From positions 1 through 4,110 of IMG/VR virus record IMGVR_UViG_2541047932_000006: DNA of 4,110 nucleotides. One strand, given 5' to 3'. The DNA is from a virus. Lineage: Duplodnaviria; Heunggongvirae; Uroviricota; Caudoviricetes. Below are positions 1 through 4,110 of this stretch, piece by piece; position 1 is the first letter of the stretch, and each line of letters begins with the position of its first letter. The notes under the pieces were generated by a model that was not told where the DNA came from, ran no database searches, and saw only the letters and a list, made by a program, of their open reading frames with translations. The translations under genes and the position numbers were made by a program.

Positions 1-648
1 TTTGAGCCGCAGTCAGGCACCCTGAACAGCGTTATTCCACCGGCAGTGCAGCACCTGACGGTGGAGGTGAGCGCGGCTGACGGTCAGTATCTGGCACAGG
101 CGAAATGGGACACGCCGAGGGTGGTGAAGGGCGTGCGCTTCAGTCTGCGCCTGACCAGTGGAAGCGGTGAGAACAGCCGCCTGCTGACCACCGCCATCAC
201 TGCCGATACGGAGCACCGTTTCAGTGGCCTGCCTCTCGGGGAATACACCCTGACGGTCAGGGCGATTAACAGCTATGGCCAGCAGGGCGAACCCGCCACC
301 ACCACCTTCCGGATTAACGCACCGGCAGCGCCTGCCGGTGTTGAACTGACGCCGGGGTATTTTCAGATAACGGCAGTCCCGAAACTGACATTTATGACCC
401 GACGGTGCAGTTTGAGTTCTGGTTTTCGGAGGCAAAAATTGCAGACGCCGCACAGGTGGAAACCTCTGCCCGTTATCTGGGGACCGGCAGTCAGTGGAGT
501 GTATCCGGCCCGCACATTAAGCCCGGGAAGGATTTCTGGTTTTACGTGCGCAGCGTCAACCTGGTGGGGAAATCTGCGTTTGTGGAAGTCAGCGGGCAGC
601 CCAGCAATGATGCAGAAGGGTATCTGGGGCTGTTTCGGGAAAAAATAG
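1..648 (+). CDS. J: Tail-tip host-specificity protein J, internal portion (5'-truncated by the window edge). Frame 1 is open from nt 1 to the stop at 646-648, but J-like sequence in this frame ends at about 390; the remainder to 648 is out-of-frame read-through.
   Basis: Frame 1 has no stop from nt 1. Its translation ([39 protein letters not shown]...[16 protein letters not shown]) matches my recollection of the lambda J region upstream of the C-terminal receptor-binding part. The J-like sequence then continues in frame 3 ([13 protein letters not shown]...), so the frame-1 tail is probably not real protein. Confidence 0.6.
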
Positions 649-1661
649 GAAAACTGCATCTGGCTCAGGGGCTGTGGGAGCTGATAGACAACAGCCAGCT
701 TGCGGATGAGATGGCGGAGATGAAGACCACCATCACCGAAACCCGCAATGAAATCACACAGACGGTCAGTAAAACGCTGGAGGACCAGAGCGCCACCATA
801 CAGCAGATACAGCGCGTGCAGAAGGACACAAATGATGACCTTGCTGCACTTTACATGCTGAAGGTACAGAAAACAAAAAATGGCATACCCTATGTTGCCG
901 GTATTGGAGCGGGGATTGAGGATACTGATGGCCAGCCCCTGAGCAACATACTGCTGCTGGCTGACCGTATTGCGATGATTAACCCGGAGGACGGCAACAC
1001 CACGCCGTTATTTGTGGCGCAGGGGAATCAGCTGTTCATGAACGATGTGTTCCTGAAGCGGCTGTTTGCGGTGAGTATCACCTCGTCCGGCAATCCCCCG
1101 ACGTTTTCCCTGACGCCGGAGGGCAGGCTGACCGCAAGAAATGCTGATATCAGCGGTAACGTGAATGCGAATTCCGGGACGCTCAACAACGTCACGATTA
1201 ACGAGAACTGTCGGGTTCTGGGAAAACTGTCCGCGAACCAGATTGAAGGCGATCTCGTTAAAACAGTGGGCAAAGCTTTCCCCCGGGATTCCCGTGCACC
1301 GGAGCGGTGGCCATCAGGGACCATTACCGTCAGGGTTTATGACGATCAGCCGTTTGACCGGCAAATTGTTATTCCGGCGGTGGCATTCAGCGGCGCTAAA
1401 CATGAGAGAGAGCATACTGATATTTACTCCTCATGCCGTCTGATAGTGCGGAAAAACGGTGCTGAAATTTATAACCGTACCGCGCTGGATAATACGCTGA
1501 TTTACAGTGGCGTTATTGATATGCCTGCCGGTCATGGTCACATGACGCTGGAGTTTTCGGTGTCAGCATGGCTGGTAAATAACTGGTATCCCACAGCAAG
1601 TATCAGCGATCTGCTGGTTGTGGTGATGAAAAAATCCACAGCAGGTATCAGTATCAGCTGA
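405..1661 (+). CDS. J: Tail-tip host-specificity protein J, C-terminal portion. Frame 3 is open from 345; J-like translation starts at about 393 ([13 protein letters not shown]...), and 405 is only the first in-frame ATG.
   Basis: The 418-aa ORF from the track contains motifs I recall from the lambda J C-terminal region ([63 protein letters not shown], ...KK...GIS at the end). It lies directly upstream of lom, as in lambda. Stop TGA at 1659-1661. Confidence 0.85.
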
Positions 1662-1677
1662 ATTTTATAACCCAGAA

Positions 1678-1706
1678 CGGGCGTCAGAAATGACGCCTTT
1701 TTTATT
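1678..1706 (+). terminator. Rho-independent terminator downstream of J
   Basis: GC-rich hairpin GGCGTCA(1680-1686) / loop GAAA / TGACGCC(1691-1697), followed directly by TTTTTTATT (1698-1706). Confidence 0.7.
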
Positions 1707-1727
1707 GCAGAAAAGCGAGAGGTAATT

Positions 1728-2327
1728 ATGCGTAAACTTTATGCAGCCATTTTGTCCGCAGCCATTTGTCTGACCGTATCCGGTGCGCCTGCATGGGCGT
1801 CTGAGCAGCAGGCCACGCTGAGCGCGGGGTATCTTCATGCCCGGACGAACGCTCCCGGTAGCGATAATCTTAACGGGATTAACGTGAAATACCGTTATGA
1901 GTTTACGGACACACTGGGGATGGTGACGTCGTTCAGCTATGCAGGAGACAGGAATCGCCAGCTGACCCATTACAGCGATACCCGCTGGCATGAAGATTCC
2001 GTTCGTAACCGCTGGTTCAGCGTAATGGCGGGGCCGTCTGTGCGCGTGAATGAATGGTTCAGCGCGTATGCGATGGCGGGTGTGGCTTACAGCCGTGTGT
2101 CGACTTTCTCCGGGGATTATCTCCGCGTAACTGACAACAAGGGGAAAACGCACGACGTGCTGACCGGAAGTGATGACGGTCGCCACAGCGACACCTCTCT
2201 GGCGTGGGGAGCTGGCGTGCAGTTTAACCCGACCGAATCCGTGGCCATTGATATTGCTTATGAAGGCTCCGGCAGTGGCGACTGGCGCACTGACGGTTTC
2301 ATCGTGGGTGTCGGTTATAAATTCTGA
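1728..2327 (+). CDS. lom: Lom outer-membrane beta-barrel protein (Ail/Lom/OmpX family), a lysogenic-conversion 'moron'
   Basis: 199-aa ORF. RBS GAGAGG at 1717-1722, 5 nt before the ATG. N-terminal signal peptide MRKLYAAILSAAICLTVSGAPAWA|SE. C-terminal aromatic beta-signal ...VGVGYKF. The protein is near-identical to lambda Lom as I recall it. Position between J and stf matches lambda. Confidence 0.92.
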   Translation: MRKLYAAILSAAICLTVSGAPAWASEQQATLSAGYLHARTNAPGSDNLNGINVKYRYEFTDTLGMVTSFSYAGDRNRQLTHYSDTRWHEDSVRNRWFSVMAGPSVRVNEWFSAYAMAGVAYSRVSTFSGDYLRVTDNKGKTHDVLTGSDDGRHSDTSLAWGAGVQFNPTESVAIDIAYEGSGSGDWRTDGFIVGVGYKF

Positions 2328-2353
2328 TTAGCCAGGTAACACAGTGTTATGAC

Positions 2354-2381
2354 AGTCCGCCGGTTCAGGCGGGCTTTTTTG
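2354..2381 (+). terminator. Rho-independent terminator downstream of lom
   Basis: Imperfect hairpin AGTCCGCC(2354-2361) / loop GGTTCA / GGCGGGCT(2368-2375) with one mismatch, then a run of six T (2375-2380). Confidence 0.65.
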
Positions 2382-2391
2382 TGAGGTGAAT

Positions 2392-3705
2392 ATGGCAGTA
2401 AAGATTTCAGGTGTACTGAAAGACGGCACAGGAAAACCGGTACAGAACTGCACAATCCAGCTGAAAGCAAAACGTAACAGTACCACGGTGGTGGTGAACA
2501 CGGTGGCCTCTGAAAATCCGGATGAAGCCGGTCGTTACAGCATGGACGTTGAGTACGGTCAGTACAGCGTCATTCTGTTGGTGGAGGGCTTCCCGCCGTC
2601 ACATGCCGGGACCATCACCGTGTATGAAGATTCTCAACCGGGGACGCTGAATGATTTTCTCGGTGCCATGTCGGAGGATGACGTCCGTCCGGAGGCACTG
2701 CGTCGTTTTGAACTGATGGTGGAAGAAGCAGCGCGTCACGCAGAGGAGGCGAAGAAGAATGCCGGAGAAGCAGAGACGTCCGCGAGGAATGCCGGCATAT
2801 CAGCCAGTAAGGCGGAAGCGAGCGCGGCAAATGCTGACACTTCAGCAGGGGATGCATCGGAGTCAGCCCGGCAGGCGGCAGAAAGTGCAGCCGCTGCAAA
2901 GCAGTCAGAGGAGGCGTCCTCGTCCTCGGCCTCTGCGGCCGCTCAAAAAGCCAGTGAGTCATCACAAAGTGCAGCAGAAGCTGAATTGTCAAGAAAGACG
3001 GCAGAAAGTGCAGCCGGTAATGCAGCCAGGGATGCAACGACCGCAGCAGAAAAAGCCCGGGAGTCAGCAGAAAGCGCACAGTCAGCGGAACAAAGCAGGA
3101 TAGCGGCGGAAGAAGCCGTAAACCGAATCCCCACCGTGGTGGGACCTCCCGGGCCAAAGGGGGAACAGGGGCCCGCGGGTCCTCAGGGGCCGAAGGGTGA
3201 TAAGGGAGAGCGCGGAGACACCGGCCCTGTCGGGGCAACCGGCGAACGGGGACCGGCAGGTGATGCTGGTCCGGCAGGCCCGCAGGGGCCGAAAGGTGAC
3301 AGGGGAGAGCGGGGAGAGACCGGTCTGACAGGAAGTACAGGTCCACAGGGTCCAAAGGGAGACACCGGGGCAGCAGGCCCGGCAGGCCCACAGGGACCGA
3401 AAGGAGAAACAGGTGTGGCTGGCCCGGTAGGGGCAACCGGACCTCAGGGACCAAAGGGCGCCCCGGGGGAGACGCAAATACGGTTCCGTCTGGGGCCGGG
3501 AAACATTATTGAGACAAACAGCAATGGCTGGTTCCCGGATACAGATGGCGCACTCATCACCGGACTGACCTTTCTTGACCCCAAAGATGCCACACGGGTT
3601 CAGGGTTTTTTTCAGCATTTGCAGGTCAGGTTTGGTGACGGGCCGTGGCAGGATGTTAAGGGGCTGGATGAAGTGGGCAGTGATACAGGCAGAACAGGAG
3701 AATGA
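2392..3705 (+). CDS. stf: Side tail fibre protein (Stf-like): lambda-type N-terminal domain, Ala/Ser/Glu-rich shaft, collagen-like triple-helix repeat region, short C-terminal tip
   Basis: ATG at 2392 preceded by GAGG (2383-2386); the track's GTG at 2386 is an in-frame alternative. The N-terminus [37 protein letters not shown]...[47 protein letters not shown] matches my recollection of the lambda Stf (orf-401) N-terminus. Residues ~251-361 are 37 consecutive G-X-Y triplets. Stop TGA at 3703-3705. Confidence 0.88.
2722..3129 (+). repeat. Low-complexity Ala/Ser/Glu-rich repetitive shaft segment within stf, with internal DNA direct repeats
   Basis: Translation [133 protein letters not shown] perfect 18-bp direct repeat CGGCAGAAAGTGCAGCCG occurs at 2876-2893 and 2999-3016 (123 bp = 41 codons apart), with a related copy near 3065-3080. 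Confidence 0.7.
3142..3474 (+). repeat. Collagen-like G-X-Y repeat region: 37 uninterrupted triplets, 333 nt, inside stf
   Basis: Translation [111 protein letters not shown] has Gly at every third residue without exception. GPQGPKG recurs five times. Larger units [11 protein letters not shown](K/R)GERG(D/E)TG recur at 3169-3225 and 3268-3324. Confidence 0.9.
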
Positions 3706-3706
3706 C

Positions 3707-3976
3707 ATGAACATACTAAAAAAACTTATGCAGCGTCTGTGCGGTTGCGGAAAGCATGATGGCCGAGAACACGGGCAGTCGCTTACAGTACAACTGCGAC
3801 TGGGGCCGGCAGACATCCTGGAGTCAGATGAGAATGGTATTATCCCGGAGCAGGACAGGGTAATCACGCAGGTGGTGATACTGGATGCGGATAAAAAGCA
3901 GATACAGTGTGTGGTAAGACCGCTGCAAATCCTGCGTGCTGACGGGAGGTGGGAAAATATTGGCGGAATGAAATAG
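3707..3976 (+). CDS. Small hypothetical protein (89 aa) whose C-terminal ~60 residues are paralogous to the Stf C-terminal tip domain; function unknown (candidate fibre-tip accessory protein, chaperone or alternative tip)
   Basis: ATG at 3707 lies 1 nt after the stf stop (TGAcATG). RBS AGGAG at 3695-3699, 7 nt upstream. Translation MNILKKLMQRLCGCGKHDGREHGQSLTVQLRLGPADILESDENGIIPEQDRVITQVVILDADKKQIQCVVRPLQILRADGRWENIGGMK. It is followed by a strong terminator. The track's longer ORF from 3575 is an out-of-frame overlap with the stf 3' end and is unlikely to be real. Confidence 0.7.
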   Translation: MNILKKLMQRLCGCGKHDGREHGQSLTVQLRLGPADILESDENGIIPEQDRVITQVVILDADKKQIQCVVRPLQILRADGRWENIGGMK

Positions 3977-3990
3977 CCGACAGCTTCACA

Positions 3991-4017
3991 AAACCGGAGT
4001 CCGGCTCCGGTTTTTTG
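3991..4017 (+). terminator. Rho-independent terminator ending the stf / small-ORF transcription unit
   Basis: Perfect 6-bp GC-rich stem CCGGAG(3994-3999) / loop TCCGG / CTCCGG(4005-4010), followed by TTTTTTG (4011-4017). Confidence 0.8.
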
Positions 4018-4030
4018 TTGGTTAGATGTA

Positions 4031-4070
4031 ATCTGACAGATACCTGTATAAATAACCGGTAACTGTCAGG
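4031..4070. promoter_or_regulatory. Imperfect inverted repeat (candidate protein-binding site or operator) in an AT-rich intergenic stretch
   Basis: tCTGACAGaTACC (4032-4044) and GGTAaCTGTCAGg (4058-4070) are reverse complements with two mismatches, flanking an AT-rich centre TGTATAAATAACC. Function not determinable from sequence. Confidence 0.3.
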
Positions 4071-4110
4071 TCAGAGCTAATACAGGTAATTATATTATAA
4101 TCACGAGCGC

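Follow-up and report, generated by a model that had tools for sequence, protein, structure and literature searches.

A probable collagen-containing side tail fibre of EPclA type in a lambdoid prophage of Escherichia coli, its mosaic gene and the small ORF downstream

Described collagen-like fibres and the gene under study

Among the closest described relatives of the fibre considered here is EPclA, a protein of 437 amino acids reported by Ghosh et al. in 2012, which comprises a 116-residue PCoil and a 111-residue collagen domain (PMC3368898). EPclA is a trimer, and circular dichroism reveals collagen in it that melts with a Tm of 42 °C; experiments on the Sakai protein established that its PCoil is a trimeric coiled coil, a hinge is visible by rotary-shadowing electron microscopy, and the PfC domain acts as a trimerisation and refolding module that re-nucleates the collagen helix (PMC3368898). 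Examples of EPclA include ECs2717, ECs2941 (VT1-Sakai H0004) and Z0982 (PMC3368898). Phage 434, which is viable, carries the same cassette.

The stretch of DNA analysed here (the window; 4,110 nt, positions 1 to 4,110 of IMG/VR record IMGVR_UViG_2541047932_000006) holds an intact open reading frame, stf (2392..3705, + strand), that runs from an ATG at 2392 to a TGA at 3703-3705 and encodes 437 amino acids plus the stop codon. The product shares with EPclA its length, the PfN-PCoil-Col-PfC order and the respective lengths of the PCoil and collagen domains, the 116 residues between PfN and Col being residues 134-249, and differs from it merely by scattered substitutions. It is 96.1% identical to VT1-Sakai H0004 over all 437 residues, which exceeds the 90% expected of EPclA copies from O157 prophages; it is also collinear with, and 97.5% identical to, the fibre of Stx2_KH16-043, and collinear with the 437-residue side tail fibre of phage 434 (UMO75288.1, OL657226), to which it is 94.5% identical. 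The PHROG families phrog_366 (E 7e-147) and phrog_3279, both termed 'tail fiber protein', match the product, and the assignment as an stf gene of EPclA type draws on the ORF itself, Pfam, phrog_366 and the collinearity with phage 434. The ORF is thus very probably the gene for a collagen-containing side tail fibre (Stf), borne by a long-tailed lambdoid prophage of E. coli that is related to phage 434 and to Stx prophages, and its product would be a homotrimer built of five modules.

An in-frame GTG at 2386 provides an alternative start, which is less favoured than the ATG at 2392 because a Shine-Dalgarno-like GAGGTG (2383..2388, + strand), read from the sequence, places its GAGG core 5 nt before that ATG, and because the product then begins with MAVKISGVL, exactly as lambda Stf does; the record of phage 434 has a ribosome binding site annotated at the equivalent place. 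Three contigs from two assemblies hold exactly this stf allele, and a pN/pS of approximately 0.1-0.3 against phage 434 in all fibre modules indicates purifying selection. Two antisense ORFs (2615-3454, 279 aa, and 3082-3867, 261 aa) were rejected as genes because they lie opposite GCN-/GGN-CCN-rich coding sequence, which is poor in stops on the reverse strand, and because all homology sits in the sense frame. An Rfam scan of the window yielded no match, and a promoter scan found no sigma-70-like site, an absence that fits read-through transcription of the late operon, in which stf directly follows J and lom, as lambda stf does.

Modules, breakpoints and spread of the fibre gene

The N-terminal module is the StfN collar, or virion attachment, domain (residues 1-91; 2392..2664, + strand), whose limits are taken from the description of the lambda fibre (PMC12617516). 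Residues 1-93 match the gpStfN chain of Ur-lambda (PDB 9e7m, chain 9e7m_Ta; E 8e-53), and PF08400 (PfN) covers residues 1-133 with 232 bits against a cut-off of 26.6 (E 2e-69). Identity to lambda orf-401 amounts to 93% over residues 1-100 (100/90/100/90/85% in consecutive blocks of 20 residues), falls to 70% over residues 101-120 and to 30-55% beyond, and protein alignment reveals no similarity past residue 240 or so. The initial annotation, which had recognised the lambda Stf anchor in this N-terminus, is therefore borne out. The anchor is followed by a linker of about 10 residues (2665..2694, + strand; limits also from PMC12617516), located in the block of 85% identity with lambda.

The third module is an Ala/Ser coiled coil of 145 residues (102-246; 2695..3129, + strand), in which a heptad a/d periodicity of 3.5 residues is kept in a single register over about 20 heptads, with a power that was matched by none of 2000 shuffles; its assignment also draws on the trimeric coiled coil of EPclA (PMC3368898). 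This region had been described as a 136-residue low-complexity segment rich in Ala, Ser and Glu: the composition holds (34% Ala, 17% Ser and 15% Glu over residues 111-250), the length is counted as 140, and the strong heptad periodicity replaces the notion of low complexity. Likewise, the suggestion that everything after the anchor is different from lambda is correct for the collagen and tip, but not for the Ala/Ser segment, since lambda Stf has a coiled coil of the same sort at residues 102-393 (PMC12617516), with which the 30-55% identity is found.

A short PTVV junction or hinge (residues 247-250; 3130..3141, + strand), proposed from the sequence and from the EPclA hinge seen by electron microscopy (PMC3368898), separates the coiled coil from the collagen-like domain (residues 251-361; 3142..3474, + strand). 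The latter consists of exactly 37 uninterrupted G-X-Y triplets, with Gly in phase in 37 of 37, Pro at 18 of the 37 X positions and five copies of GPQGPKG, and is matched by PF01391 (Collagen) over residues 251-361 with 65.8 bits against a cut-off of 27.2, so that the perfect periodicity over 111 residues, with its many GPQGPKG units, was rightly recognised. By our own arithmetic, with a Gly frequency near 0.08, the probability of 37 in-phase Gly residues is approximately 1e-41, which rules out chance; internal duplicated units are present at 45- and 99-nt spacing. The 76 residues that follow the last triplet, in accordance with the short tip initially noted, constitute the PfC tip domain (residues 362-437; 3475..3702, + strand), a trimerisation knob (PMC3368898) and presumed cell-binding end, recognised by PF06820 at residues 363-426 (120 bits against a cut-off of 25; E 5e-35). 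The domain search that had been proposed as a check thus returned PF08400, PF01391 and PF06820, all far above their cut-offs.

The breakpoints of the gene were located by blastn. DNA homology to lambda is confined to positions 2193-2741 of the window (88% identity) and its end defines a proximal recombination boundary at 2741 (2741..2741, + strand; residue 117 or thereabouts), which is also where the sampled partial matches in E. coli genomes place it. The distal cassette (3156..4020, + strand; blastn against PA2 and protein alignment) encompasses most of the collagen domain, the tip, a downstream ORF of 89 residues and a terminator, and is 94.5% identical at the DNA level to the fibre cassette of podovirus PA2, which is of the 933W type (PA2, 933W and phi24B being short-tailed Stx phages). 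In a set of 5,426 complete E. coli genomes, 4,659 match part of the query formed by stf and the downstream ORF, whereas coverage reaches 80% or more, the threshold at which the full cassette was counted, in only 693; the partial matches that were sampled, such as stfR of K-12, are all limited to the first ~350 nt of stf. These observations sustain the view that distal parts have been exchanged with the anchor kept, and the comparison of stf alleles does map a breakpoint after the N-terminal domain. The gene recombines module by module: the anchor (to nt 2741) is common to nearly all lambdoid stf genes, and the unit formed by collagen, tip and downstream ORF (from nt 3156) moves as one, reaching even podoviral Stx phages. 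Collinearity with a single known fibre type, which had been put forward as an argument against a mosaic, is present (phage 434 Stf, EPclA), and the mosaic breakpoints are nevertheless real; since the whole protein is collinear with a described fibre type, the mosaic is ancient and widespread rather than particular to this locus. The domain content, homologies and breakpoints of the fibre gene are direct observations.

The downstream ORF and the role of the tip

That such fibres trimerise, that their collagen and coiled-coil segments adopt these conformations and that the collar has the structure described here has been demonstrated in published work on proteins with 93-96% identity to the corresponding parts of this fibre. 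In Ur-lambda, twelve StfN copies (four trimers) surround the gpV/gpM ring junction at the tail tip (PMC12617516). In the structure proposed here, StfN residues 1-91 would form a beta-sheet 'collar' that fixes the fibre to the virion, and the linker of approximately 10 residues would lead into the coiled coil and, after a short hinge, into a 111-residue collagen triple helix without hydroxyproline, which would owe its stability to charged residues and to Pro at X positions. The 76-residue PfC knob would self-trimerise and align the three chains, with the collagen helix zipping from its C-terminus. The distal end is presumed to make a reversible first contact with the cell surface, leading to a higher adsorption rate before J engages its receptor. 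The Stf of Ur-lambda raises the adsorption rate through OmpC, and the related fibres of lambda_2B8 reportedly do not recognise BamA.

Both receptor binding by PfC and the role of the fibre in adsorption are what we infer, and PfC may chiefly nucleate folding instead of binding the receptor, since it is small (a 64-residue core) and unusually invariant. An exhaustive HMMER search with the tip against 1.84 billion representative proteins produced only 48 matches at E ≤0.001, 34 of which are fragments from the same family with at least 84% identity; the distant ones are motif-level matches to Big_7 Ig repeats and to tandem units in giant proteins that resemble fibres, which suggest a small beta structure and are not proof of homology.

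The question of the tip is tied to that of the 89-residue ORF (ORF89; 3707..3976, + strand), which begins 1 nt past the fibre stop codon and holds a second PfC domain at its residues 28-89 (PF06820, E 1.4e-36; phrog_576), being ~31-35% identical to the fibre tip. A terminator-like hairpin followed by a T run (3990..4014, + strand) ends the unit formed by stf and ORF89; the corresponding site of phage 434 carries a terminator annotation. A search of PDB sequences with ORF89 gave no meaningful match, and an AlphaFold2 monomer built from a 24-sequence alignment is a low-confidence model (mean pLDDT 58, pTM 0.40) with six short strands.

It could be imagined that the PfC knob serves only trimerisation and registration, and that the host is recognised by ORF89, which as an adaptor or adhesin would dock onto the tip or exchange into it (cf. 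T4 gp38), or by the collagen/coiled-coil shaft. PfC alone does trimerise and nucleate collagen refolding (PMC3368898), it is near-invariant over hundreds of prophages and two virion morphotypes, which is unusual for a receptor-binding tip, and ORF89 is translationally coupled to stf, always travels with it and is under purifying selection (pN/pS of 0.014/0.18 for its PfC part against phage 434). We consider this scheme unlikely, however, since ORF68 of Sp5, the homologue of ORF89, is dispensable, being listed as non-essential (PMC5155283), ORF89 has PF06820 as its sole Pfam match and none to the Tfa chaperone family, and the cryo-EM and proteomics paper on phi24B contains no occurrence of 'gp60', the name inferred for the small protein.

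Slightly less likely still is the suggestion that ORF89 is a silent spare tip, which recombination or deletion would swap for the fibre PfC, thereby changing specificity. This was already proposed for ORF68 of Sp5 (PMC5155283), and a contig of GCA_038404665.1 (L008, recorded for two samples) displays an in-frame fusion in which a 7-nt microhomology (CCGGCAG) links collagen triplet 13 to residue 35 of ORF89, albeit on a partial gene, as the contig begins inside the fibre gene. ORF89, however, starts at a codon of its own behind a separate AGGAG ribosome site and shows a pN far below its pS, which indicates expression as a protein in its own right; in addition, no convincing inverted repeats or invertase were found around it, and the ten best matches to the fusion junction in complete E. 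coli genomes are all in two pieces, that is, in the normal arrangement. A further, equally doubtful proposal is that ORF89, rather than being a relic, acts as a working partner of the fibre, either as a co-assembling or capping subunit that modifies the tip (a minimal adhesin or chaperone derived from a copy of that very domain) or as a stand-by cassette, put in place of the tip through deletion between short homologies. The in-frame fusion on L008 hints at the stand-by option. If ORF89 were indeed a working partner, it would represent an undescribed way to diversify or mature a collagen-like fibre.

The integrity of the prophage bears on whether the fibre is assembled at all. Upstream of stf lie the 3' part of J, the central tail fibre or tip attachment protein (1..1661, + strand; Ig_J, Ig_J_second, Phage_Tail_Tip and Ig_GpJ_C in Pfam), and lom, which encodes an Ail/Lom outer-membrane protein and is the upstream neighbour as in lambda (1728..2327, + strand; PF06316, E 4e-118); a terminator-like hairpin between lom and stf (2354..2375, + strand) is annotated as a terminator in phage 434. 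J carries a 1-nt deletion at 392/393, a single gap relative to O157 F3113, and because of this frameshift the prophage may be unable to build tails, so that the fibre may never assemble from this copy. That stf is a relic of defective prophages here, and that its collagen-like product, if made, is of use to the bacterium rather than to a virion, for instance in adhesion, as with streptococcal Scl, is highly improbable: both prophage copies in the draft genome have a frameshifted J, Ghosh et al. left a host role for EPclA proteins open (PMC3368898) and collagen repeats give weak NCBIfam similarity to the Scl and Lcl adhesins, but the adhesin scores are far below cut-offs (78 versus 325 bits) and stem from G-X-Y repeats only, no signal peptide, LPXTG motif or lipobox is seen in the fibre sequence, the stf ORF is intact and under purifying selection, its architecture is identical to that of the fibre of a viable phage, 434, and an error in the assembly could account for the frameshift in J.

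Comparison with known fibre systems

The side tail fibre proposed above belongs to a very common type, borne by phages that disseminate Shiga toxin and type III effector genes; the host E. coli strain carries type III effector genes. Since Pfam, PHROGs and RefSeq already label its parts, the gene has little value as a discovery, and its residual value lies in the receptor of this fibre type and in the function of the conserved 89-residue tip paralogue.

The systems to which the fibre can be compared include the bacterial surface proteins Streptococcus Scl1/Scl2, Legionella Lcl and Bacillus BclA, with which it shares uninterrupted G-X-Y repeats that form triple helices free of hydroxyproline, a globular domain for trimerisation acting as the nucleus. 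These proteins are adhesins, either secreted or anchored to the wall, whose flanking domains are unrelated, and the similarity is restricted to the repeats; an Scl/Lcl adhesin assignment was rejected because its NCBIfam scores lie far below the family cut-offs.

The Stf of lambda and Ur-lambda (orf-401 + orf-314; PDB 9e7m) resembles the present fibre in its collar, linker and Ala/Ser trimeric coiled coil, and in the position of its gene after lom. In lambda, however, a coiled coil of ~290 residues is followed by a hinge, Pf2 repeats, a distal rod resembling T4 gp37 and an OmpC-binding domain, and the Tfa chaperone is needed; here, a 145-residue coil is followed by collagen and PfC, the downstream ORF is a PfC domain, and the Pfam search yielded no match to PF03406 (Pf2) or to the Tfa family at E ≤0.1.

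EPclB (933W L0121, Sp5 ORF67/ECs1228, phi24B gp61 and PA2 gp63) is the lateral fibre of short-tailed Stx phages. In Sp5, an anti-ORF67 antibody labels the tail ends (PMC5155283), and in phi24B the six lateral fibres are made of gp61, their shaft being collagen-like and ending in a small globule at the C-terminus. Over the last ~183 residues, which comprise collagen and PfC, EPclB shows at least 94% identity to the fibre described here, and the 89-residue ORF and the terminator are shared. EPclB is longer, however (645 residues), its N-terminal domain, which docks on a podovirus tail adaptor, is only 25-40% identical, and it has two collagen segments with a Pf2-type motif between them, whereas the present fibre has one.

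The order J-lom-stf-ORF89 is identical to that in O157 prophages and in phage 434, whose layout of J, lom, stf, 89-residue ORF and terminator, then type III effector genes, is shared. The differences from phage 434 consist of ~24 substitutions in Stf and of a more diverged J and lom, DNA homology starting at position 1502 of the window. The architecture, the trimeric collagen and coiled-coil nature and the modular shuffling among EHEC prophages are all already published. The fibre gene is therefore a mosaic as initially described, but one that is already known and ordinary, because a protein of this architecture had been purified and characterised by 2012, and phage 434 and many Shiga-toxin prophages have it too.

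Genomic setting of the fibre gene

The window corresponds exactly to bases 1-4110 of its source scaffold, KE702272.1 (GCA_000461135.1), and represents the distal part of a lambdoid late operon, with a gene order common to phage 434 and to many O157/O145 prophages. It contains the 3' part of J (1-1661; Pfam Ig_J, Ig_J_second, Phage_Tail_Tip and Ig_GpJ_C), followed by lom (PF06316), the 437-aa fibre ORF (2392-3705), and an 89-aa ORF (ORF89, 3707-3976) that carries a second copy of the C-terminal tip domain, PfC. Terminator-like hairpins with T runs are found 3' of J, lom and ORF89 (at 1679-1698, 2354-2375 and 3990-4014, respectively), and terminators are likewise annotated after J, lom and the 89-aa ORF in the phage 434 record. 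A promoter scan across the whole window revealed no sigma-70-like promoter, which fits anti-terminated late transcription, while an Rfam scan of the window gave no match.

At its downstream end, positions 4101-4110 (minus strand) are the last codons of a convergent type III effector gene of the EspF-repeat, TccP2-like type, located at 4090-5502 of the source scaffold, where its proline-rich repeats appear as an unresolved run of N. The hya hydrogenase operon lies beyond this gene, and thus the prophage terminates with an effector locus next to the fibre cassette. Two long antisense ORFs across the fibre gene, on the minus strand (2615-3454, 279 aa, and 3082-3867, 261 aa), owe their lack of stop codons to a codon composition rich in Ala and Gly-Pro, with no sign that they are genes; a comparable antisense ORF, ‘orf206b’, is annotated in lambda.

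The J reading frame is split into two parts (46..648 and 405..1661) by a 1-nt deletion at 392/393, the window reading ACA-TTTAT vs ACAGTTTAT in O157 F3113. The same deletion recurs in another prophage of this draft genome, which has an identical fibre protein and shares 98.8% identity with the window across 4,020 nt. It was found in none of the complete E. coli genomes, where the best matches are 99.1% identical and span 112 nt vs 111 nt in the window. The deletion reflects either a real pseudogenisation, passed from one prophage to the other by copying, or an error of assembly.

Modules of a known fibre and their boundaries

The fibre ORF runs from ATG 2392 to TGA 3703-3705, as initially annotated, and is preceded by GAGGTG. 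Three Pfam families, all scoring far over their cut-offs, match its product: PF08400 (prophage tail fibre N-terminal; residues 1-133, 232 bits), PF01391 (collagen; 65.8 bits, starting at residue 251 and covering the G-X-Y triplets), and PF06820 (prophage tail fibre C-terminus; residues 363-426, 120 bits). In addition, PHROGs 366 and 3279, both described as ‘tail fiber protein’, match the fibre with E values of 7e-147 and 4e-138. The collagen-like region of 111 residues was borne out as exactly 37 uninterrupted triplets (aa 251-361, nt 3142-3474), with Pro in 18 of the 37 X positions and five GPQGPKG units, and 76 residues of tip follow it, as had been estimated. Within the collagen-coding DNA, positions 3166-3431 include duplicated 56-nt units (99-nt spacing, 82% identical) as well as a 45-nt period of 2.1 copies; such internal duplications probably explain why alleles are reported to differ in frame in the length of their collagen (27-144 aa).

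The segment that precedes the collagen had been described as Ala/Ser/Glu-rich and of low complexity. The composition was confirmed (34% Ala, 17% Ser and 15% Glu in residues 111-250), but the low-complexity description did not hold, since residues 102-246 carry a regular heptad repeat (SAxxAxx) in a single register of approximately 20 heptads, and its 3.5-residue periodicity was equalled in none of 2000 shuffles. Judged from its sequence, this segment is a predicted coiled-coil shaft, rather than unstructured low complexity.

Comparison with orf-401, which encodes the N-terminal portion of lambda Stf, substantiates the lambda-type anchor, with identities of 100, 90, 100, 90 and 85% in successive 20-aa blocks to residue 100, 70% at residues 101-120, and 30-55% through the Ala/Ser region; protein alignment detected no similarity past approximately residue 240. 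The initial annotation had considered everything beyond the anchor to be different from lambda, which is correct for the collagen and the tip but not for the shaft, whose coiled coil is of the same kind as lambda's. At the DNA level, the lambda match (2193-2741, 88%) spans the lom end, the spacer and stf codons 1-117. The fibre is only 25-45% identical to the protein of PA2, a short-tailed Stx phage of the 933W/phi24B type, up to approximately residue 200, vs 90-100% from approximately residue 261 to the end, and the PA2 DNA match (3156-4020, 94.5%) takes in ORF89 and the terminator. Some part of the stf-ORF89 query is matched in 4,659 of 5,426 complete E. coli genomes, but at least 80% of the unit in only 693, and the partial matches sampled are confined to the first ~350 nt of the query (e.g. 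stfR of K-12). These alignments confirm the proposed modular exchange, in which a conserved virion-proximal anchor is paired with exchangeable distal parts, and map its boundaries to approximately nt 2741 and nt 3156.

Taken as a whole, the protein nonetheless represents one well-known type of fibre. Over its full length it is collinear with the phage 434 ‘side tail fiber’, also of 437 aa (94.5% identity, with no 20-aa block below 85%), VT1-Sakai H0004 (96.1%), Stx2_KH16-043 (97.5%) and Stx2 phage 1717 (95.0%). This architecture, in the order PfN-PCoil-Col-PfC, is precisely what has been named EPclA, in which the PCoil takes up 116 and the collagen domain 111 of 437 aa (Ghosh et al. 2012, PMC3368898), and the finding is thus already known, as is the modular shuffling among prophages discussed by the same authors, who reported up to eight such prophages per O157 genome (PMC3368898). 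Their work on EPclA also provides an experimental answer to the question of triple-helix formation: recombinant Sakai EPclA is a trimer that dissociates upon denaturation, its G-X-Y region has the CD spectrum of collagen and melts at 42 C, its PfC trimerises alone and quickly re-nucleates the collagen helix, and electron microscopy reveals a hinged dumbbell (PMC3368898).

The companion ORF89

The leads of remaining value at this locus are the receptor of the fibre and the role of the PfC-only ORF89. The ATG of ORF89 comes 1 nt after the stop of the fibre gene and has AGGAG 6 nt in front of it; the two genes are coupled in translation. The product consists of a 27-aa Cys-containing leader (MNILKKLMQRLCGCGKHDGREHGQS...) and a PfC domain (PF06820, E 1.4e-36; phrog_576) that shares ~31-35% identity with the tip of the fibre itself; an AlphaFold2 monomer model is all-beta and of low confidence (pLDDT 58). 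ORF89 always accompanies the cassette, be it in phage 434, PA2 or O157 prophages, and it is under purifying selection, with a pN of 0.014 vs a pS of 0.18 in its PfC part. The phage 434 record labels it ‘tail fiber assembly chaperone’, which we take to rest on gene position; the RefSeq label is ‘phage tail fiber C-terminal domain-containing protein’. The Sp5 homologue, ORF68, is among the non-essential genes and has been suggested as a reservoir for tip variation (Mondal et al., PMC5155283).

On one contig of GCA_038404665.1 (JAYDZQ010000147.1, positions 1-300), collagen triplet 13 is naturally fused in frame to residue 35 of ORF89, with the junction after GERGPA at the 7-nt microhomology CCGGCAG, equivalent to joining window positions ~3256 and ~3809. 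This deletion leaves the fibre end with 13 triplets plus an alternative tip, on a contig that starts inside the gene. The best ten matches to the junction in complete genomes all display the normal two-piece arrangement, and a search for inverted repeats at ORF89 found none indicative of an invertase switch.

Proposed working of the fibre

Residues 1-93 match the gpStfN chain of Ur-lambda (PDB 9e7m, E 8e-53), whose residues 1-94 form a six-stranded antiparallel sheet and a helix in a 3.3-A cryo-EM structure; twelve copies (four trimers) encircle the tail tip as a collar where gpV meets gpM, joined to a trimeric coiled coil by flexible ~10-residue linkers (PMC12617516). The same attachment at the gpV/gpM collar is assumed for the present fibre, in view of the 93% identity to the lambda-type anchor. 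From there, the shaft would proceed from the coiled coil through a hinge to the collagen helix, capped by the PfC knob.

The tip (3475-3702) is the presumed end of contact with the cell. An exhaustive HMMER search with PfC among 1.84 billion representative proteins yielded only 48 matches with E up to 0.001, which are mainly near-identical fragments, and pN in the domain is 0.006-0.037. This narrowness and invariance fit either a conserved receptor or a domain that serves mainly for chain registration. The distant matches are short motifs, GNIIxxxxNGxxPxxDGxLITGL and a second, 14-letter sub-motif, which recur in tandem in large proteins of fibre-like type, and the sub-motif units overlap Big_7 Ig repeats (proteins P0155, P0156, P0157 and P0162); such recurrence suggests a small beta structure, and nothing more.

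By analogy with Ur-lambda Stf, which acts via OmpC, the fibre may speed adsorption; for related fibres of lambda_2B8, BamA is reportedly not the receptor. Phage phi24B carries six lateral fibres made of gp61, which has a shaft of collagen-like type and, at its C-terminus, a small globule described as ‘potentially involved in recognition of a receptor’. Sp5 ORF67, a related fibre of a short-tailed Stx phage, is needed for infectivity, and antibody against it labels the tail end (PMC5155283).
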